Source of the DNA: Leucoraja erinacea
Lineage: Eukaryota
Assembly: GCF_028641065.1 (NCBI RefSeq)
Contig: NC_073409.1
Span: 11,408,001 to 11,472,000 of the forward strand
DNA length: 64,000 bases
Direction of reading: 5' to 3'
Below, one piece after another: positions 1 through 40,600 of this stretch (position 1 is its first letter; every line of letters begins with the position of its first letter). The notes beneath the pieces were generated by a model. The model was not told where the DNA came from. It saw only the letters and a list, made by a program, of their open reading frames with translations, and made no database searches. The position numbers and the translations under genes were made by a program.

Positions 1-690
1 CATGGGTGAAGCCACTTAATAAATTCCTGGAACTGTCATCTGGATTCTAGAACACTGTTTGGTGTCTTGTCATTTCATTAAATCTGATATTCACTCGGAA
101 CATCACTGCCTAGCCAAGAGGTCCTCTAGCAGCTGCAGGGTTTGAAACACTTCTTCCTCAGATATTACATTAGTAAACCTTAAACCAGCTGAATCCAACA
201 CAGTTCCTCTGTAAAGCTTCCTATTGAAGGGTTTATGTTGCGGCCCACAGCTCCCAGTGGCTCTTGTGGCCAACGCCTTCCTGTTATCTAATCTTCCAGT
301 CACATTCACAGCCGAGGTTTGGATTGAGGTGGGTAATTTTGAGCCGTAACTCCATCCATGGCTCAGTTATTGGCACGATAATAAGATCATATGTCATCGA
401 ACCAGAATTAGGCCAATTTTCCCATAAAGTCTGCAAGGCCATTCGATCTTATCTGTACTTGGGACTTTGGACTTTTTTTTTTACATGAACAAATGTTTTT
501 TAATGTAATTGTTTTTTGTTAATTATGTTATATAAGAGGTTACCATGGTTACAGACCTTTATGTTGCTGCATTTATATGCTGCTGTAAGTAATAATTTAA
601 TTGTTCCGATCTTGATACACATGGCAATTAAATACTCTTTACTCATGACATAATATAGAGAACAAGACTGGAAAGTTTAACAAATTCAGT

Positions 691-696
691 TTTAAT
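691..696 (-). terminator. Candidate polyadenylation signal (ATTAAA) of the selenoprotein gene
   Basis: Plus strand tttaat = ATTAAA on minus, about 80 nt downstream of the SECIS hairpin. Confidence 0.55.
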
Positions 697-776: not shown

Positions 777-854
777 GAAGCACCGTTTCTGATTTCTGTT
801 CATGTCTTCACCACCAGCTTTAGGGGAAAACAATCATTGACAGAATGGAGCTTC
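777..854 (-). promoter_or_regulatory. SECIS element (selenocysteine insertion sequence), probably type I
   Basis: Minus-strand RNA: GAAGC U CC A UUCUG-UCA-AUGAU-UGUUUUCCCCU-AAA-GCUGGU-GGUGAAGACA-UGAA-CAGAAAU-CAGAA AC GG U GCUUC. AUGA core at 837-834, 11-nt helix II arm, apical AAA at 821-819, GA at 801-800, and a long helix I. Confidence 0.85.
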
Positions 855-1049: not shown

Positions 1050-2224
1050 CTTCGAAAAACACAAACATTGTTATTGTCAGAGTTTCTCTCTCACACGTTG
1101 GAGGCTGGCGGACATGTTCAAAGATAAATTAATTCAATGTGTATCAACATGGACTGTGGACACGGGGCAATCCTAGAAAAGGCTGCTCGCTCCGTGTGTG
1201 CACCCTCCCTCTGAAAATGACCATTGTTACAAGTTGGAGAAGGACCAGGCACTCCTTCCTCAACGTGTCTCAACTGCATTTCGTTCTCTCTGTACTGTAC
1301 ACTGACAATGACAATTAAAGTTGAATCTGAATCTGAATCTGAATCGGTCTCCTGATTCAGTAGTATTGGGAATAGTTCTTTATCTATTTTCCAATCCTAT
1401 CCCTTCATACCCTCAATATTTAAACATGAATCATTTGGCACCATCAGTAGTCACCAGGGTAGAGAATTCAGAAGATTCACTGCTCTCTCAGTGAAGACAT
1501 TTCTTCTCTTCCCGCCCTAAAACCATGGTCTCTTATCCGGAGACTCTGCATCGCCCCAGATTTCAACCTGACAAACAGCCACGACCCTGACCGTGAAATC
1601 CCTTCACACAGTTCTTTCTTAATGAGATCATCTGTCATTCTTCAGTGCTGCAGATCTTTGTTAAACTCCCCTTGTGATGCAGCCCCTCATCCCCAGAATC
1701 AATCCAATGAGTATACACTGCACCGACAAGGCAATATTTTCCTCCGTCCCTCTAGTGGTGCAAGCCCTGAACTAGCTCAACAAATCCGTCTTATTTTCTT
1801 ATTTCTGCATCCCACACCCTTACTGTAGCCAGGGGTTTGCCTGGATTAGAGGACTTCAGTTATGGTGAGAGATTGTATAGGGTGGGCTTGGTTTCCCTGG
1901 AGTGAAGGGCACTGAGGGGGTGATCTGATGGGCACTGTTTGGAGAGATTGTTCAAATCTTGTTCCCATGGTAGAGGATATTAAAAATGCCAAAGGTTTAG
2001 AGTGAGAGGAATGAGTTTTAAAGGAAATCTGAGGGAGGATTTGTTTTGTTACACAGAGTGGTTGATATCTGGAATTCACTGCCAGAGGAGGCGGTGGAAT
2101 CTGATACAATCACTATATTTAAGATACATTTATATGAACTTTAATATGGAAGGCATAGAAGGATATGCAGGGATCTCTGCTGAGACCTCTGCTGTTTGTG
2201 ATATATATAAATGACTTGGACATA

Positions 2225-4540
2225 CAGTGTATTCAGAAAGTATTCAGACCCCTTCACTTTTTCCACATTTTCTTATGTTACAGCCTTATTCTAAAATTGA
2301 TTAAATACATTTTTTTAATCAACATACATTTTTTTAATCAACAACCTACACACAATACCTCATAATATAAAATCAAAAACAGGTGTTTAGAAATTTTTGC
2401 AAAGTAATTAAAAATAAATAACTGAAATATCACATTTACATAAGTATTCAGACCCTTTGCTATGACACTCAAAATTGAGCTTCGGTGCATCCTGTATCCA
2501 TTGATTATCCTTGAGATGTTTCTACAACTTGATCGGAGTCCACAAGTGGTAAATTAAATTGATTGTACATGATTTGGAAAGAAACACACCTGTCTATATA
2601 AGGTCCCTGCAGAGCAAAAACCAAGCCATGAAGATGAAGGAATTGTCCGTAGACCTCCGAGACAGGATTGTATCGAGACACAAATTTGGGGAAGGGTATA
2701 AAACAATTTCAGCAGTGTTGCAAGTCCCAAAGAGCAGTGGCCCTGTCATTTAAAATGGAAGAACTTTGGAACCACCAGGACTCTTCATAGAGCTGGCTGC
2801 CCGGCCAAACTGAGCCCAGCCAAACTCGCTCAAGGAGAAGGGCCTTGGTCAGGGAGGTGACCAAGAACCCGATGGTCACTCTGACAGAGCTCCAGAGTTC
2901 CTTTGTGGCAATGAGAGAAACTTCCAGAAGGACAACTATATCTGCAGCACTCCACCAATCAGGCCTTTATGGTAGAGTGGCCAGACGGAAGACACTCTTC
3001 AGTAAATGGCACATAGGCACTTGACACTTGGAGTTTGCCAAAAGGCACCTAAACAAGATTCTCTGGTCTGAGGCCTGAATGCCAAGCGTCACGTCTGGAC
3101 GAAACCAGGCACCGCTCATCACCTGGCCAATACCGTACCTACGGTGAACCATGGTGGTGGCAGCATCATGCTGTTGGGATGTTTTTCAGCGGCAGGAACT
3201 GGGAGACTAGATAGGATCGAAGGAAAGATGAACGGAGCAAAGTACAGAGAGATCCTTGATGAAAACCTGCTCTAGAGCTTTCAGGACCTCAGACTGGGGC
3301 GGAGGTTCACCTTCCAACAGGACAACGAACCTAAGCACAAGGCCAAGTCAATGCAGGAGTGGCTTTGTGACAAGTCTGTGAATAGACAATAGGTGCAGGA
3401 GCAGGCCATTCGGCCCTTCGAGCCAGCACCGCCATTCAATGTGATCATGGCTGATCATCCCCAATCAGTACCCCGTTCCTGCCTTCTGCCCATATCCCCT
3501 GACTACGCTATCTTTAAGAGCCCTATCTAGCTCTCTCTTGAAAGTATCCAGAGAACCAGCCTCCACCGCCCTCTGAGACAGAGAATTCCACAGACTCACA
3601 ACTCTCTGTATGAAAAAGTGTTTCCTCGTCTCCGTTCTAAATGACTTACCCCTTATTCTTAAACTGTGGCCCCTGGTTCTGGACTCCCCCAACATCGGAA
3701 ACATGTTTCCTGCCTCTAACGTGTCCAAACCGTTAATAATCTTATATATTGCAATAAGATACCCTCTCATCCTTCTAAACTCCAGAGTGTACAAGCCCAG
3801 CCGTTCCGCATATAACAGTCCCGCTATCCCGGGAATTAAACTTGTAAACCTACGCTGTACTCCCTCTATAGCAAGAATGTCCTTCCTCAAATTAGGGGAC
3901 CAAAACTGCACACAATACTCCAGGTGTGGTCTCACTAAGGCCCTATACACCTGCAGAAGGACCTCTTTGCCCCTATACTCAACTCCTCTTGTTATGAAGG
4001 CCAACATGTCATTCGCTTTCTTCACTGCCCTTCAATGTCCTTGAGTGGCCCAGCCAGAGCCCGGACTGGAATCCCATCGAATATCTCTGGAGGGACCTGA
4101 AAATAGCTGTGCATCGACGCTCCCCATCCAACCTGACAGAGTTTGAGAGGATCTGCGGAGAAGAATGGGAGAAATTACCCAAATACAGGTGTGCCAAGCT
4201 TGTAGCTTCATACCCAAGAAGACGAGGCTGTAATCGCTGCCAAAGGGCCTCAACAAAGTACTGCATGAAGGATCTGAATACTTATGTAAATGTGATATTT
4301 CAGTTATTTATTTTTAATTATTTTGAAAAAATTTCTGAACACCCGTTTTTACTTTTTTAATATGGGGTATTATGTAGAGATTGATGATTAAAAAAATGAA
4401 TTTAATCCATTTTAGAATAAGGCTGTAACGTAACAAAATGTGGAAAAAGTGAAGGGGTCTGACCACACATTTCACTGTACCAATTGGTGCAGGTGACAAA
4501 TAAATGTATCTTGTATCTTGAATACTTTCTGAATGCACTG
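2225..4540 (+). mobile_element. Tc1/mariner DNA transposon with a degenerate transposase and an internal CR1 insertion
   Basis: TA-flanked ~230-bp inverted repeats (CAGTG.ATTCAGAAAGTATTCAGACC). Transposase remnants include [23 protein letters not shown] and FQQDNEPKH, with frameshifts. Confidence 0.9.
3384..4033 (-). mobile_element. 5'-truncated CR1 LINE inserted in the Tc1 transposase
   Basis: ORF 3465-4025 is a CR1 ORF2 C-terminus ([13 protein letters not shown]). The Tc1 sequence gtgaat/gtccttgag is split around it, with an apparent aat duplication. Confidence 0.9.
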
Positions 4541-6217: not shown

Positions 6218-6294
6218 GTCGCCATGGTGAGGGAATGTATTTGATTGCAGTTTAGAGAAAACCAACTTATTGTTAATTGTAACTTCAAAACTTC
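6218..6294 (-). CDS. SELENOW2: Rdx-family selenoprotein exon 3: GSFEVTINNKLVFSKLQSNTFPHHGD
   Basis: Acceptor ctcctcag, donor gtgagt, 77 nt, phase 1 to 0. Contains the Rdx signature GxFE(I/V)x(I/V)N...VFSKL...FP. Confidence 0.92.
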
Positions 6295-8427: not shown

Positions 8428-8525
8428 CTTTCTGTCCTATGAAGCCGGTGATGTGCGCCTCTGGAATTTGCTCCTTAATCTCAGTGGCAAGGAACAGGAA
8501 ACGCGCCAGGAAGCCTCATCCGGCA
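8428..8525 (-). CDS. SELENOW2: Rdx-family selenoprotein exon 2 with in-frame Sec UGA (8518-8516): (C)AGUGFLARFLFLATEIKEQIPEAHITGFIGQK(G)
   Basis: Acceptor ctctgtccccag, donor gtgagt, 98 nt, phase 2 to 1. Completes the CxxU motif, and Rdx-like similarity continues past the UGA. Confidence 0.92.
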
Positions 8526-9071: not shown

Positions 9072-9211
9072 CAGTACTCCACCTTGACATCCACTTTGTG
9101 TTCGCCTTCGTACATGCCCCCAGCCAGGCTGCTTTCCGCCAGGCTTTGTTGGCTTTCCGTGGGGATATCATCATAAGGCGGGACGCCGCAGCCACATCCA
9201 CAAGGCCTCAT
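9072..9211 (-). CDS. SELENOW2: Rdx-family selenoprotein exon 1: MRPCGCGCGVPPYDD...GGMYEGEHKVDVKVEY(C); start uncertain (ATGs at 9376, 9211, 9115)
   Basis: Ends TAC TG|gtgagt; TG plus the first T of exon 2 gives Cys. VKVEYC is the typical SELENOW2/MIEN1 first strand. ATG 9211 has A at -3. Confidence 0.8.
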
Positions 9212-16631: not shown

Positions 16632-19600
16632 AGATACATTTGAGGAAATTAAGTGGGAGAATGGGATTAAAGGAATGATCAAGACTCATCCCTTGAGTCC
16701 TTTAATCCCAGTCTCCCAATTCATGTGCTGAATTAGCTCTCTAGGACATATGTAAATATACAAGAGAATTGAGTAAAATTTCATAAACTGAAATTAATCC
16801 AACAGATGTATTATTTCTCTGAACCCCCCACATCACCTTCATACCCTGTCTTATCACCAAGCTTCAATTTCATCTTTGACTTGGAAAAATGTGAAGACAT
16901 GTTAAAGGCAGCTTGTGATCAATCTAACAGAACGCAGAGAACGACAAGGGGAAGAATGTTTCACTGAGACAACAACGTACTGTGGAAAGGAGGGATTCAA
17001 TGATGGGCAGAAAGGAGAACAACCTGGAGGCGTGCATGTATTTAATGAAAAAGAACAGCCGAACATGTTTTCAAGAATTGATAGCAGCAGAATATGAGGC
17101 AACAAGGGTAAATATTTAATCTTTTTGCTGGGTGCACCAATAATGGCACAACAAAGTGTCTCGCTGGATCATTTAAGAGATCATTTATACGATAGTTGAG
17201 ATTGACCAACAAGTTTGTTGCAGGGAAGGAAAAAAGGGTCTAAAGTAAAATAAAAATTGCAGCAATTGCATTTGGATATTTTGACCAAATGCACGTCACA
17301 CCAGCAGAGAGATCTTCACATTATTATCCAATTTAATATCCTTTAGGTCAGGAGTCGGCAACCTATGGCCCATGAGCCGGATCCGGCCCATAACCCGAAA
17401 TTATCTGGCCCGCAGGCGTATTTTTCCCCCCGTCATCTAGACTTCTTTAGACTGTTTAATACAGTGACATTTAATATGGCCAGCGACATAAAGGCTTGCT
17501 TTAATGCTCCTAGCAATCCTGTTTGTGGATACAAAAAATCCGAACTGATATAATCTCGTGAACTGGGCAAAAGGTTAATTGGATTGGTGGACGTAGTTCC
17601 ACTGATGTAAAAAGTAGGTATGTTGCAAAACCTACCTTAAGCGTCGCTGCAGATCTGTCCCAGCCCGTGTGTGCGATTATGGTGCCGTTTAGAGGGGGGG
17701 CGGGTTTAAAACACGATTTTCCCTAGGCTATTCAAATCGAGCTTGTTCAGTCGACTTAGTTGCTGACGAAAAATCGCTGCGAGGTTTGGTCGCTGGAGCT
17801 ATTTTTACCTTTTTAGGGTTTATTTAATTATTATAGCAAGTTAAAAATTAACCTCTAAACCCGCGACCGCCGACAACGGGCCGGATCTCATACAGGGGAC
17901 AACGGAAGGTAGGTTGTTTATTTTTACATTAAAAAGCGCTTCTTAAGATCCCTTTATACAAAGTTTAATGTTGCGAGTAGCTAATTTGGGGCCCCATTAA
18001 ATCCCGCAGTATTTTTCTGGCCATTTGGGGTACAAATCTACCGCAATGTGAACGTTCTAAACCAGCACGCTTTCCACAGGATCCCACTCGAAAGCCGATT
18101 TAAATGGTCATTAATTTACAGCAATTGAACACTAAATTCCTTCCATTGGGCCTATAAATTAATGTAAATGAGATTTAAAAATCATGTTTTATTGTGAATT
18201 CTTTGTGAATGTTATTTGGACACTTAGGCTATTTAAAAAATGTTAATCTTTTTTTAAGAAATGGATAGATGTTTAGATCTAGTAATTGAAGTTTGGAATT
18301 AGCTACAATTGGGTAACTAACTAATTATATGCTTTAATTTCAGGTCATCCAAGTAAGATTGTTTTATATTTGTTTCAGAATGCTTCAATCTATGATAACT
18401 GAAAATTTCATTCAGTTCTCTTAATTTTTGAGAAAGTTATGGGCTTTTGACTGTCCACGATCACAGCTTTTTTGTTATGTCCATAGAAAATCAATAGGGA
18501 ACAAGATGCTAATTTCCGAGTATGAAAATGGCCATAACATTTTTAATACTTGAGATATGAAAGTGAATTAGGTGTCAAATTAAACTACTTTTTATGCTTT
18601 ATCTGATGGGATAAATTGCAGACTTGATTTTTAAAATCTCAAAATTTTGTAACATTGCTAGTAAAAGTGTAGTTACAGTTGCAGCGGCTGTGGTGCCTGA
18701 TGCACAGCGCGCCTCCGAGCCCGGGGGAGGGTCAGGGCCAGGACCGCCCTCTTCAAAGATAGCGGCGCTGCCGGCCGTTGGTTCGTGGACACGCCAGACA
18801 GGAATCCAGCGGTAAATGGACGGGATTGGACCTTGGAGAGGAGAGAGGTGGGGAGAGGTGTAGAGAGGGAATGGGGAAAGTGAAGTAAAGAGGAGAGAGG
18901 GGGTGAGGAGAGAGGAGAGGGGGGGGGGGAAGGAGAGAGTGGGGGGGGGGGAGAGAGGAGGGAGGAGAGGTGGTGAGAGAGGGGGAAGGGAGAGGGGGAG
19001 GAGGTGGGGGAAGAGAGGGTAACAAAGGGTCTGCATGAAGTTTAGGACAGAGGGGTGAGAGTAGTTTCAATACCAGTGTCTCAAACTAACTGCTATGTTC
19101 GGAAGTCATAATATTGCTTAAATATATAAATATTTATATATGTGGCCTGCCATCCACTCACAGGCATGGGTCCTGGACCCTATGCAGAACAAGGTTGCCT
19201 ACCCCTGCTTTAGGTTAAACGTGTATTTAGTTGTGTAACACCAAATGGCTTTCTTCATAAATATATTGTGGTAATGAACCATCTAGTTCAGCCCTGAAAC
19301 TCAATACTTAGATATGCTGCATTAGCTAAAACCCAGACTTAACAGCTCAAAGCTGACCACAATAACTTTCCAGGTGTGAAGCAACTCCAATGCCACAGTT
19401 GCTGCTTGAACGGAGGAATAAGGATTTCATCAGGATTCTACCCATGATCCAAACATCCCAGTTATTGTGCGGCTCATCACAGGGGTTTCAGGGTTTGTAC
19501 GGTAATGAGTCATTGCTCACAGAGAGAAAAGATTTAAGAAAAATAATGATAAAATCTTACCAGGAAGTTTAAGTCTCCCACAGCAAGAATTACAATGGTG

Positions 19601-22600
19601 TTTTGATCGAAAGTTTTTAACCGCATCTTCTCCCAAATTGGCAGGTCCAAATACCATGTCATGTGACCTGAAAGAAACAGCGTAAACTTGGATATTGCAG
19701 TCACTTACAGAATGCTGGTAACAATGCGTTAGCTTAAAGTCTGTCTGCAGATTCACCTCCAGCAAGAAGAGGTAGGTGACTCGTGACCTTCATGAATGTG
19801 GAGCAAAAGCCTGAAGGACCAACTCCCATTTCTACTGCTCTTCCATATGATAACATTTTTAGATTTAAGGAATCCAGGGATAACATGTTAAGTGTTAGCA
19901 CTGAGGGGAAAGTAGCACTGAGATAAACACCACAGTACAACTGGGCGGTGAAGCAGGTGTGTTCCTTAAGCTTTATTTAGTAAAACTTCGAACAAAAAAC
20001 AAATAAAGTAACATCATTTTTTACAGAAAATGTAAAAAAAGATTGATTTACTGAGCTGGATCACAAATCCGCCAGAACACAGTGAATGTTGAAACAGCAT
20101 CAGGAGGAAATGACCTACTCCTGTCCCTATTTTGTAGTAAATCTTTTTTGCAACCTCTAAAGACTGACATTTTCCTTGAGTAATTTCCAGAAAGAAATAT
20201 GATTCTACTAATTTTCCTGCCAATAAATTGAAGTTACTGCTTGCCAAAGACTTTAGGTACAGATCACTGCACTCCCATCAAATTATGTGTCGTGGAAGGA
20301 GGAAAATTGATATTTAAATTAATACTCACTGTTTCTCCTCAGACTTTATTACCGAAGGATCAGTTAAGTTCTCCCCAACACCTATAAAAGTAAATATACA
20401 AAACTAGATTAAACTACCCCTCTTACAAATATATCAATGTAGAACATGAAATAAATGCACCTACTGGAAATAGATACAAAAATACTGAAAGCTAGGTCAG
20501 GCAACATCAGTGGAAAGGGAAAGACTTGATGATTCAGGTCCAAGACCCTTCATCTAATGAAAAGTCTGAGACCCAAAACATTATTTCTATTTATCTTTCC
20601 ACAGATGCTATTCATCTGCTCAATGTGTCCAGCGTGTTCTGTTTTTATATCAAAATGGATTTATGTCCTTCGAGCTTCAAGCTTCAATAGCAATGCCATG
20701 ACAAAGAAGCACGACCCCATTTAAATGCTATGGTCTTCACATTCAGTCAGCTTCAGTTTCAGGCTATGACATTTTTCTGATTGCACGTCCTATCACCATG
20801 GTAAATGTAAGGACATTTTGGATGCTGTTACTCGGTTCATTTTGCCTGGTGTTTGTTTTAGGTTTTGTGTCCAGACCTGTTCATGGCATTCATTCAACTG
20901 CTTCTCTTTCTCCCTTGTGTCAGCAAATGCTTTCATAACTTGTCTACATAATGGTAGTTTTCCTTTATTGTACACTTTAACAATTTAAGTTCCACTTTCT
21001 AGAGTGATTAGCAGCTTTGACAATAGTTGGTCTTATGCATAAAGTAGACGACATTATCAACACCTGTCAAATGTCTCTGCGTACTAATTATTTACCAGAC
21101 CCTATCATAGAGTTTACTTTTGGGGAGAGAAATCTGAAATACTGATGTCAAGCTGCATCCAAGGGATTTTTGTTAGATGGCCCGTTATAACGCGGGTTTA
21201 CTCTATTCATGTATAGTATTACCTGATTTGATTGAACCGCATGCAAAACCAAGCTTGTCATTGTACTTCGGTAAAATGACCATAATAAACCTAAACCTAT
21301 TGCTACCAAAAGAAAAGTTTCAAGTTTTTACAATTTATAATCCGTTTGAAACTGCTTAATTTTAACAGTTCAGAGTTCTGACATGATCATATATCAAAGC
21401 CTTTTAAAAATGATGACATTTGGAAGTTTAGAATCACCAATTATTAACTGTTTAAGAATAATTTAAAAAAAATCAGCGTTCACAACTAATATAAAGCTAC
21501 TTCACTTTAACAAAAGCTTATCGTACTCACCTTGCAAGTCCAGAACCAGTAGTTCACCTCTCGTATACTCATAGGTCCAGTGACTAAAGGCAAGCATGGT
21601 CTCCTCCAGCATGTTGTTTGGACGGATCTCATCACCACTGTTATGATTAAATTTCCGGAACTCCCCAGTCATACATTCTTCAATTGCAAACCATTGGCTT
21701 GCTGAATGACAATACAGAAGGAACACTTCCAGGAACCTGAGGTTAATCAGACATTTATTCAATATAACATAGGAAACAACTATACTATGTAACTATATAG
21801 ACACAAGCAATATAATGAATAATTATAGTGGTAGCAAACTAACTTACTCTTCCTGACAGATATTATAATTAAAAACTTATGCTTGTACTGTTAAGGAAAA
21901 ACATGAATTATTTCTCTTCTTAAGTGTCTTAAGGGACTGTCACATTAAAGGTGCTGCACAAATACACATTATAATAATAGAGCCAACCAACATGGAAACA
22001 GGCCCTTCAGCCTAACTTATCCATGTTAACCAAGTTACATCATCCAAGCTAGTGCCATTTTCCACACCTGGCCCATTTTCTTCTAAGCCTTTCCTATCCT
22101 GTACCTGTCCAAATGTGTTTTAAACTTTGTTATAGTACAACTACATCATCTGGCAACGTTCCATATACCAACCACCCACTGTGTGAAAAGGTTGCCCCTC
22201 GGATTCCTTTTAAGTCTTTGCCCTCTCACCTTAAATCTGTGCCCTCTAGTTCTTGATTCTCCCCCCAGGGATAAATACTATGCATTCACCTTATAGATTC
22301 ACATTAATAGATTTTCTTTCAGATACAAAGAATCAGGGAATATGGGGATAGTACACCGAGGTAAAAGATCAGCTATAAAATCAATGACTGGCAGAGCAGG
22401 CACAATGGGACAGAATGGTTTATCACTACTTCTGTTCCATAATGTGTACAATATTCCTCCTATCTTTCCATCCTGTAGCAATCGATGAAACTGTAAAGTT
22501 ATACCAATCTTGCCAAAAATAATACTGGGATGAAAATAACTGGCAATTGTTTTTAAAGGCATTCTTCTTCTGCTAGGGAAGCATGGCAAAAAAGCTCAGA

Positions 22601-37600: not shown

Positions 37601-40600
37601 TTATCCAGCTGCGACATGACTTCCTGACTTTTATTTGGGGCTCCCCTAAACAAATGTGCAGAGCTGTCCAACTTAGAAATGACTTTCACGGCGAGCTTGA
37701 AACTTACAAGAGAATGCTTGAGCAGACGCAGTAGAAGTTAACTGACTGCCATGAAATTCCGCAAATCCAGCATAAGAATTCACTGTCCTCAAATGATAGT
37801 CACCATGGTGGGCACCCTAATAAAGAAATGAGATATTAATAACATTCAATGAACCTCAATACAAAAGGTAGAGTGTGTGAGGGGTGTGGGGAGGAGAGTG
37901 AGAAAAGGAAGTACAAATCAGTGTACCAAATCATGAATGGCTCCCACAGTTATTTTCTGGTCTTTGAATTTCAGCACTCCTCCAGTTCCTAACTTTGGCA
38001 GCTCCAATACATCTTTGTGGCCTGAAATATTTACATTTGAGATGAACAGAATTTACTTTATGGTTGCTAATAAACTGACAATACAAAAGAAAATGTTAGT
38101 AAAATACATGCAAATTTGAAACGTTTCCGATCTGACCTCGCACACCTAATCCCTACCACCACAGGTACAATTGATTGCAAAGTAATTGGAAATTGATACT
38201 TAAAATAGCAAACACTTTTTTGATATAAAATGTATTTTACAATTAGTTTTAAATTTAATATTGTAAATTTGCATGCTTCAATCCGTATACCCTTTCTAAT
38301 TAAAGTAACTGATTTTTAATTCAAGACCAAGCAAAGGTCTTATCAATTCTATCTTATGGAAACCATTCAGATGTCAAATCTCGGGCCAGGTGGGGGATGG
38401 GGGAGGGAAAACCTTTTAAAATCTCTTACCCCGACGGATATGCGATTTTTATCTGTATCGCATCTCCGTCTGCACTGCGGCCTAACATCGAGGAGTTGGC
38501 GGCCTCTTGCTGGAAACCAACTTCGGGAGCTCCAACCACGGGAGCCTGCAGGACATACCATCGTGGAGCTCGCATTCTCTGGTTAGAGACTGACTTTGGG
38601 AGCTCCAAGCCGCAGGAGCTTCGACCGCCCGACGCGGGAGCTTTGATCGCCCCGACTTCAGATGGTTCCATTGCCCGACCACGGGAGAATAAAGAGGAAG
38701 AAGATTGGACTTTATTGCCTTCCATCAGTGAGGAATCCACTGTGGTGGATGTTTATTTTAACTTTTATGTAGTTGGGTGTCTTGTTGCTTTTTGTTTTGT
38801 ATGGCTGTATGGTAATTTGAGTTTCACTGTACCTTAATTGGTACATGTGACAAACTGATCTTTGAAACTTTGAAGGAAGGAAACATTCAGAATTGCTAAA
38901 AGCAAGCATGGGTTTGAGGTACAAATCTGAGACATTTTAAGAGGATGTGGAAGTGTTACTGAACTGGGTAAAACAGAATGGAACAGTAGTGCCTTTTTCA
39001 AGCAACATAGATATAGGAAAAAGGGCAATAAAACCAAGGAGAGTCCCAAGCAGTGCACCAACAGTGAAGTCACCTGCAACCAACAGAAGTCCCGTAAAGT
39101 TAGTGGTACAGGAGCTCAAACCTCTAAATTGGGTTTTGTTCCACAGGTCACTCAGATGTCCTGAACAGTTCCCAATATTGATATGTTGATTTTGCAATTC
39201 GATAGCCTGCATGAAGCAATCGTCCAAATTTCTTTGCTCTTTTCTGTATTTTTCATGGGTCTCTTTACTGGATATGGTGGCTGAAGTCAACTCGCCTGTT
39301 TGCAGAGGTCCATTCTTTTCGAATTGGTTCTCAAAGTAGTGCATGGCACTTGGGTCACATTCAGTGCTTCGGTCATTATTATTATCAGTGTCTGTGCTAC
39401 TCTCAGTATCAATGAATGCATGATTAAGATATCCTTCAGTCTCATAGCAAGGTGTAGTACGATTACTGCAACAGAAGCTGCAAGCAGGATGAGAAGGGCA
39501 GTAGCAAATTTCTTCAGGTAAAGCACAAACAACTTCACTATACTTACCAACAAAGGCCCCAAATTCAATAGAACTCCCGTCAGCATCTACACCAGTTTTA
39601 ATTGAATCGACCGAATCTGGCACAAGCTCCAATTGACTTGAACCGCTTGGCTGAGATGGGGTACTAACAAAAAATTTGGCAGATGGGGAGGAGAGATTTG
39701 GTATGCTATGGAATGACTGTCCTGGTTTCTGGTCATTGGTCAAAGACTGAGTTTTCCCAAGGCCAACATGGCTTCTATGCCTAAGTTCAGAGAGCTCTGC
39801 TGCTTTTGGTAATAAGGCACAGCCGGAGGAACCAGCCTCTTGAAAATTCTGTTCATTTTGTTGGGAACCTGGAAGTAATTCCTGACCAAATTTTCTGCAC
39901 ACCTCCTTTGGGGAAGAGTTAACATATTCTTGAAGAAAACCATCCGTACAGATAGAATTGCCAGTGTTAATTCCTCGCTGAGGAAAAGAAGAGCCAAAAT
40001 ATCTTCCAATGCTGTGCTTCTTCAACGAAGTTTTAAGTGGGACATCAGAAACATTTTCTCCCAGATTTTTTGAAATGCTGAGTTCACGAGTAATTTCATT
40101 GTGCACCTCTGTGGCCTCCGAAGCTTTTTGAGCAGTCAGTGCTTTCAATGTATCCACTGTAAGAGCTGACAAGTCCTGCAAGTGCCCTATTTGACTGTCC
40201 AATGTTTGCAATGAACGCTTTATATAATTTACTCGATCACCTACTTCTTTTAATTGGATGGACATATTTTCAACTCTAAATAGAAAAGAGAAGAAAAGTC
40301 TTCATTACTTCACATTAAATAAATGAAGATCACAAAATGTCTCGGATATACAAACTGTATTTATACGGCACAATTTCCCCAAAAATATCTTGCAAGATTA
40401 ATAAATGGACACCAAATCAAAAGGGCTAGTGTTAGAAGTGGAGGCAAAGCTTGGTCTAAGAGGATTTAAATAGTCTAAAAGTAGTGAAATGGTGTGGTAG
40501 GGGTGGTGATAGATGGTAGTTCAGGCATAGAATTCTAGAGCCTTAGGCCTAGGTGAGTGAATGCATAAATAATAGTGGGACAAAGAACAAGAGTTATACA

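Follow-up and report, generated by a model that had tools for sequence, protein, structure and literature searches.

Positions 777 to 854 of the minus strand, in a 64,000-nucleotide stretch of the skate Leucoraja erinacea genome (the window), were described in an earlier note as a selenocysteine insertion sequence (SECIS) hairpin in the 3' UTR of a candidate selenoprotein gene. Two questions follow: whether the hairpin is a working SECIS, and which gene it serves.

Hairpin Structure and SECIS Motifs

The hairpin consists of helix I, an internal loop, a quartet, helix II, and an apex that carries AAA. In the minimum-energy fold, helix I forms as first drawn, through pairs 854-850/777-781, 848-847/783-784, and 845-841/787-791, and the lower part of helix II forms through 832-826/803-809; pair probabilities for the 13 helix pairs tested range from 0.76 to 1.0. 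Higher up, helix II departs from the original drawing, folding best with pairs 825-811, 824-812, 823-814, and 822-815, which leave U810 and U813 bulged. The internal loop splits the two helices, and an RUGA motif lies opposite GA. The 5' core, AUGAU (833-837), is an unpaired A followed by the UGAU of the quartet, and aligns with the AUGA of the SECIS_1 consensus, while the 3' side of the quartet is UGAA (799-802); AUGA at 837-834 and GA at 801-800 stand where the earlier note put them.

Within the quartet, the third pair is U.U, an A faces the core U, and helix II has U-A as its fourth pair; the tandem G.A/A.G pairs presumably adopt a sheared geometry. According to the accessible text of PMC1874613, the quartet binds SBP2, the AAR motif is required in vivo, and a purine-pyrimidine fourth pair is favored for SBP2; the U-A pair seen here may argue against efficiency. 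This U-A pair at the quartet edge (U836-A799), reported earlier as slightly atypical, is indeed present, yet it does not look like a special defect, since it is scarcely paired in the fold model (probability 0.05) and recurs in a candidate SECIS of the MIEN1 paralog described below.

The apical AAA (819-821), the AAR motif, lies 12 nucleotides past AUGA, where 11 to 13 are expected. Its position is as claimed, but A821 pairs with U816 in the fold model (probability 0.79), so that the unpaired apex is reduced to A820-A819 unless core and AAA are forced open. Holding both open gives -21.4 rather than -23.2 kcal/mol, a cost of 1.8 kcal/mol. Only 3 to 4 nucleotides separate AAA from the 3' arm, and the fold contains no extra apical mini-helix. 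An additional apical helix defines form 2 in the portion of PMC2673426 available, and by that definition the hairpin would be form 1. At -23.2 kcal/mol the 78-mer has a z-score of -2.76, with 2 of 200 shuffles equally stable; for the opposite strand the z-score is -1.07, with 26 of 200.

RNA and variation data came from four of 24 runs (X4, X6, X7, and X9), over positions 250-1300, and variation covered two of the three related organisms that carry the stretch. A search of the indexed runs listed none with RNA of the stretch, which counts neither for nor against its expression. Among the 13 of 17 contig differences listed for organism B (run X4), hairpin changes occur at 785, 849, and 829, none of them at AUGA, AAA, or GA; 785 and 849 are unpaired positions (the latter gains a G.U), 829 breaks a U.G pair, and the constrained energy is unchanged. 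Among the few of 26 differences listed for organism C (run X6), one hairpin change is found, again at 785. The differences listed for the two organisms include no compensatory pair. The downstream ATTAAA hexamer is intact despite one-base deletions listed in both X4 and X6. We take the hairpin to be a real, ordinary form 1 SECIS that is very probably functional.

SECIS Searches of the Window and the Genome

A search of positions 500-1200 against 4227 Rfam families at E<=10 returned a single match, the hairpin itself to SECIS_1 (RF00031), with 21.6 bits and an E-value of 0.16. The curated cutoff for RF00031 is 35 bits, which the hairpin does not reach, and no Rfam family matched at its cutoff anywhere in the window. 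A genome-wide SECIS_1 search, in which 129 of 38,759 candidates were scored, gave two matches, and the hairpin locus was not one of them; because the search yielded just these two other loci, it provides no calibration of that absence. The two SECIS elements above the Rfam cutoff are L010:1501-1562 (+), at G000:C3:10338483, and L011:1501-1567 (-), at C25:30372343.

We also applied a custom pattern (RUGA, 11-13 nt, AA, 16-27 nt, GA, plus pairing tests), the thresholds of which were fixed after the hairpin was known. Applied to the two strands of the window, the strict form matched once, at the hairpin, and the loose form three times; in shuffled 3' UTRs the strict form matched 1 of 5000 and the loose form 23 of 5000. 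Both of the genome's Rfam-passing loci satisfy the pattern. The other loose matches, at 21108 (-) and 32660 (+), fall inside the TRPM7 span and were treated as chance. Searched against the genome by a method that ignores common words, the 3' UTR (690-900) found only itself, and a MAFFT run on four SECIS candidates produced no usable alignment.

A Four-Exon Gene with an In-Frame UGA

The minus strand encodes a four-exon Rdx-family gene with GT-AG introns and exon ends at 9072, 8525-8428, 6294-6218, and 996-898. Joined at the DNA level, the exons read through in one frame, which contains just one internal TGA (8518), in the context E-Y-C-A-G-U, and has CTVL as its C-terminus. The coding part of exon 1 (9072-9211) is CpG-rich, with a GC fraction of 0.62, and ends with EY plus the TG of the first Cys codon, so the CxxU motif of the Rdx family, EY-C-A-G-U, spans the predicted exon 1-2 junction. 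Exon 2 (8428-8525, 98 nt) shares 71% identity with whale-shark P0092 across 28 residues and contains the UGA (8516-8518), the predicted selenocysteine of C-A-G-U, which falls opposite the Sec when aligned with the MIEN1 paralog on C27. Exon 3 (6218-6294, 77 nt) holds the core of the Rdx domain and by itself scores 23.7 bits against Pfam PF10262 (cutoff 22.6), for which orthologs score 29.7 to 47.4 bits. The coding part of exon 4 (898-996) supplies 32 residues up to the CTVL-stop, a CaaX end, and the 3' UTR runs onward to about 670. The proposal that the SECIS serves the UGA at 8518 is upheld by this frame, with the UGA placed within its CxxU. In the mRNA of the gene model, the distance to the SECIS core is 60 nt from the stop and 327 nt from the UGA.

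Candidate in-frame ATG codons of exon 1 are at 9115 (a product of 105 amino acids), 9211 (137 amino acids), and 9376. Initiation at 9211 would lengthen the protein by 32 residues, in a segment that opens with three closely spaced Cys. Between 9211 and 9115 on the minus strand are out-of-frame ATG codons at 9197, 9174, and 9171, which could serve as upstream starts. At about 2220-4540, intron 3 contains what by eye resembles a Tc1/mariner-type element, its ends inverted (with the termini CAGTG...TTCAGA) and LINE-like fragments nested in it.

The last exon had been placed at 981-1049, an assignment that we replace with 996-898. The acceptor at 996 is CTCAG, stronger than the GAAG of the alternative, whose encoded tail has no Pfam match; the tail encoded by 996-898 is kept in skate and shark orthologs, with its CaaX end, and NCBI model P0004 uses 996-898 letter for letter. 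Mean depth in run X9 drops from 1.5 over 970-1005 to zero over 1006-1041, which is what two reads ending at 996 would produce, possibly from one molecule. The SECIS had been offered as independent support for 981-1049, but it is downstream of both candidate acceptors and so cannot discriminate between them.

RNA Evidence

RNA reads at the locus are few. Minus-strand reads of the single-cell run X7 span 969 to about 680, across exon 4 and the hairpin, which the gene model places in the 3' UTR below the in-frame UGA. Depth in X7 is about 3 over 790-969, 5 over 754-789, and 11-12 over 682-753. The likely polyadenylation signal, ATTAAA at 691-696 (-), is 81 nt below 777, matching the roughly 80 nt first estimated, and coincides with the depth maximum; such a profile would result if transcripts were captured by their 3' ends just below ATTAAA. 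No significant end site was called at the 682-753 maximum in X7, and depth across the hairpin is zero in X9.

Three X7 reads, with two starts, join 931 to 749 and omit 750-930, which includes both stop and hairpin. The joint has a 6-nt direct repeat, and none of its eight registers offers GT-AG; it is likely a template switch by reverse transcriptase across the hairpin. If the joint did exist in a transcript, that transcript would have neither stop nor SECIS. Short high-copy repeats at 358-430 and 575-650 (both just below the poly(A) signal) and at 1258-1300 (in intron 3) show very high contig depth.

Orthologs and Database Models

Orthologs were found in another skate (P0003, 81% identity) and in sharks (P0009, P0091, and P0092; the two that were aligned have 59-61%). 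All five proteins, these four plus P0004, carry the name MIEN1-like at NCBI, and in none of the five models is CxxU present. In P0091 and P0092, homology restarts at the Gly that follows the position of the UGA, and in P0003 and P0009 one residue later; P0004 joins exon 1, read in another frame from the ATG at 9174, to exons 3 and 4, skipping exon 2. Such UGA-avoiding models would point, indirectly, to a UGA in the orthologs as well. For selenoproteins, gene models that avoid the stop are a known artifact, as the accessible text of PMC13134290 notes.

These models nonetheless admit a different reading, in which the SECIS is weak or vestigial and the main product is selenium-free, with exon 2 skipped and exon 1 in the other frame. 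P0004 matches such a product letter for letter, the Rfam score is under threshold, the fourth pair is atypical, and the residues after the UGA have drifted to FLARF from the YxxRY of the family. Yet exon 2 is kept in sharks at the 71% identity given above and used in the other four of the five models; the alternative N-termini of the models are mutually dissimilar, and stop avoidance is a known artifact (PMC13134290, accessible text); skipping exon 2 deletes the first helix of the fold; and residues of the whale-shark model are compatible with the shifted frame M-x-x-N-x-x-I-x-Y before the donor, a match that is suggestive only. We regard a mainly selenium-free product as improbable.

Still less credible, and very improbable overall, is that the hairpin arose by chance in ordinary 3' UTR sequence and that the gene is a pseudogene, the stop at 8518 being genuine. 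The Rfam E-value, the two other loose pattern matches in the window, and the low read depth would all suit a decayed locus, against which stand the rarity of the strict pattern among shuffled sequences, splice sites and frame intact around a UGA at the Sec position of the family, and orthologs retained across skates and sharks.

Gene Identity

The accessible parts of PMC13134290, a 2026 survey of vertebrates, report that SELENOW2 adjoins TRPM7. Gene order here, on C33, is USP8 (+), a second USP gene (-), the window gene, TRPM7, and an SPP-family peptidase. USP8 was identified by its dimer domain and catalytic motifs. From the human order, we take the second USP to be USP50 and the peptidase to be SPPL2A. 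The neighboring TRPM gene ends about 10 kb upstream of the window gene and carries an alpha-kinase; its N-terminal exon scores 130 bits as TRPM7 and 116 as TRPM3, versus 94 and 101 for the kinase channel on C3. The gene therefore lies near TRPM7, as SELENOW2 does. TRPM7 fills 19520-64000 of the window on the minus strand, with alpha-kinase exons at 21520-21744 (the synteny marker) and 19580-19666 and a tetramerization exon at about 40140-40280.

An Rdx profile search of the genome produced two matches above cutoff, the window locus and a locus on C27; three weak matches, on C2, C29, and C11, were inspected by eye, and none contained an Rdx-like frame. On C27 lies a conventional Sec-MIEN1, which has the 98- and 77-nt exons seen in the window gene. 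The YxxRY helix and SRxPCVIL tail that mark the MIEN1 copy are found there and not in the window gene. A candidate C27 MIEN1 SECIS occurs at L007:2987 (G000:C27, about 764,986, +), about 340 nt past the stop; it matches only the loose pattern, with 5 of 7 pairs, a weak helix II, and a fold z-score of -0.05. No Rfam SECIS match was found in the UTR of the paralog, in the 30 kb around it, or beside the window.

A tree was built from 25 hand-picked rows and 82 columns, with P0004, P0091, and the remaining matches left out. Skate and shark sequences form a clade (98/92), which joins caecilian P0096 and one further row weakly, at 87/86, below the star threshold. Constraining the clade to group with two chondrichthyan MIEN1 rows, as a MIEN1-derived origin would have it, costs 4.3 log units (p-AU 0.278), whereas grouping it with amphibian and teleost SELENOW2-like rows costs 13.9 (p-AU 0.063); the MIEN1-derived constraint thus fits better, and neither is rejected, so that SELENOW2 orthology rests on synteny. 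By identity, the nearest row outside elasmobranchs is cod P0055 (49% over 53 residues), a segment of which is labeled SELENOW2 in the accessible portion of PMC13134290.

It might be, then, that the SECIS is functional while the gene is a fast-evolving, elasmobranch-specific MIEN1 duplicate that came to lie near TRPM7 by chance. Besides the AU result, such an origin draws on the MIEN1-like names given by NCBI to all five proteins and on the candidate MIEN1 SECIS at L007:2987, which has the same UGAA 3' side and U-A fourth pair. Set against it are an identity of just 39% to C27 MIEN1, the placement of the free tree with the caecilian sequence, short of the star threshold as it is, and position: a chance landing at the published SELENOW2 site would be a considerable coincidence. 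A duplicate of MIEN1 is accordingly unlikely. The hairpin is, with good confidence, a functional form 1 SECIS, and the gene whose 3' UTR contains it is the elasmobranch SELENOW2 ortholog.

SELENOW2 in Cartilaginous Fishes

The SELENOW2 branch of the 2026 survey comprises invertebrates, cyclostomes, amphibians, and ray-finned fishes, and Table T2 of that survey gives SELENOW2 as False in seven of seven cartilaginous fishes (PMC13134290, accessible text). In the part of its supplement available, one of 80 SELENOW2 headers belongs to a chondrichthyan, Mobula, for a fragment marked 'unaligned' that does not resemble Rdx, and the only family member among 21 thorny-skate entries is MIEN1; peptides of the window gene and of its bamboo-shark ortholog have no relevant match in that same part. 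The three sharks with orthologs belong to the survey's dataset, according to its accessible text, and some RNA matches named MIEN1 there could be the window gene. The bioRxiv version, in its available portion, agrees with the published one, and SELENOW1 is reported lost (PMC13134290).

An older paper records SelW2 in the elephant shark (PMC3316567, accessible text). Since the elephant-shark sequence is labeled MIEN1 in the accessible parts of the 2026 survey (PMC13134290), the older record probably concerns the MIEN1 paralog. A literature search, its coverage ending short of subscription journals, found no paper on an elasmobranch SELENOW2. Going by its accessible text, the survey appears to have overlooked the elasmobranch gene, and we think it likely that SELENOW2 was retained but overlooked in elasmobranchs.

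Proposed Function and Implications

Recoding of UGA by SBP2, eEFSec, and Sec-tRNA is an established pathway. At this locus, exons 1-4 would be spliced into one frame, the tandem G.A/A.G quartet would create a kink-turn-like site that binds SBP2, and SBP2 with eEFSec and Sec-tRNA would have selenocysteine inserted at the UGA, which is 327 nt upstream. The ribosome would then continue to the UAG at 900-898, giving a thioredoxin-like CxxU protein of 105 to 137 residues. An exon junction follows the UGA by 88 nt, and under the position rule of nonsense-mediated decay an mRNA on which recoding fails should be sent to that pathway. In human MIEN1, a thioredoxin-like protein with a CXXC motif, CVIL is the site of geranylgeranylation (PMC3527542, accessible text). 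By analogy, the CTVL end is probably geranylgeranylated too, and would anchor the protein at the inner face of membranes, as reported for MIEN1.

A retained SELENOW2 might also act as a two-product switch, with exon 1 used in two frames: exon 2 in would give the prenylated selenoenzyme, controlled by the SECIS, and exon 2 out a selenium-free protein. The switch is drawn from NCBI model P0004 and is, as a whole, quite improbable. Were it true, the selenium-free form, which would share its C-terminal half and CaaX with the selenoenzyme, could act as a competitor at the membrane under selenium shortage.

The hairpin itself is ordinary, and matters as evidence for a second Sec-containing Rdx gene in skates and sharks at the SELENOW2 position. 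If that reading is right, the elasmobranch selenoprotein set grows by one, what looks like a gap in the vertebrate map of 2026 is closed, other inferred losses of SELENOW2 may be missed divergent copies, and five database proteins with N-termini that lack the active site need correction. The two genes would also form a natural pair of prenylated CxxU paralogs in one animal, suited to testing the function of MIEN1 and SELENOW2.

Comparison with Known Systems

With Rfam RF00031 SECIS_1 elements (GPx1 and SelN types), the hairpin shares the AUGA...GA quartet, the U.U third pair, AAA at 12 nt, and two helices, and it differs in its score (21.6 versus 35 bits), the A facing the core U, the U-A fourth pair, and two bulged U residues. 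MIEN1 (Rdx12, C17orf37) resembles the window gene in its exons of 98 and 77 nt, its domain, and its C-terminal CaaX; unlike it, the window gene has a last exon five codons longer and stands at 39% identity to the Sec-MIEN1 on C27. In amniotes, MIEN1 has Cys instead of Sec, according to the accessible parts of PMC13134290. SELENOW2 as found in lampreys, in amphibians, and in some of the ray-finned fishes (PMC13134290, accessible text; SelW2c/SelW2 in the available portion of PMC3316567) has in common with the window gene the Rdx fold, CxxU, and a position beside TRPM7, and from it the window gene differs in the diverged FLARF helix after Sec and a possible Cys-rich N-terminal extension. SELENOW2 sequences of frog, bichir, and cod in the accessible part of the PMC13134290 supplement resemble the window gene further, by eye, in a KEQIP-like segment and a basic CaaX tail.
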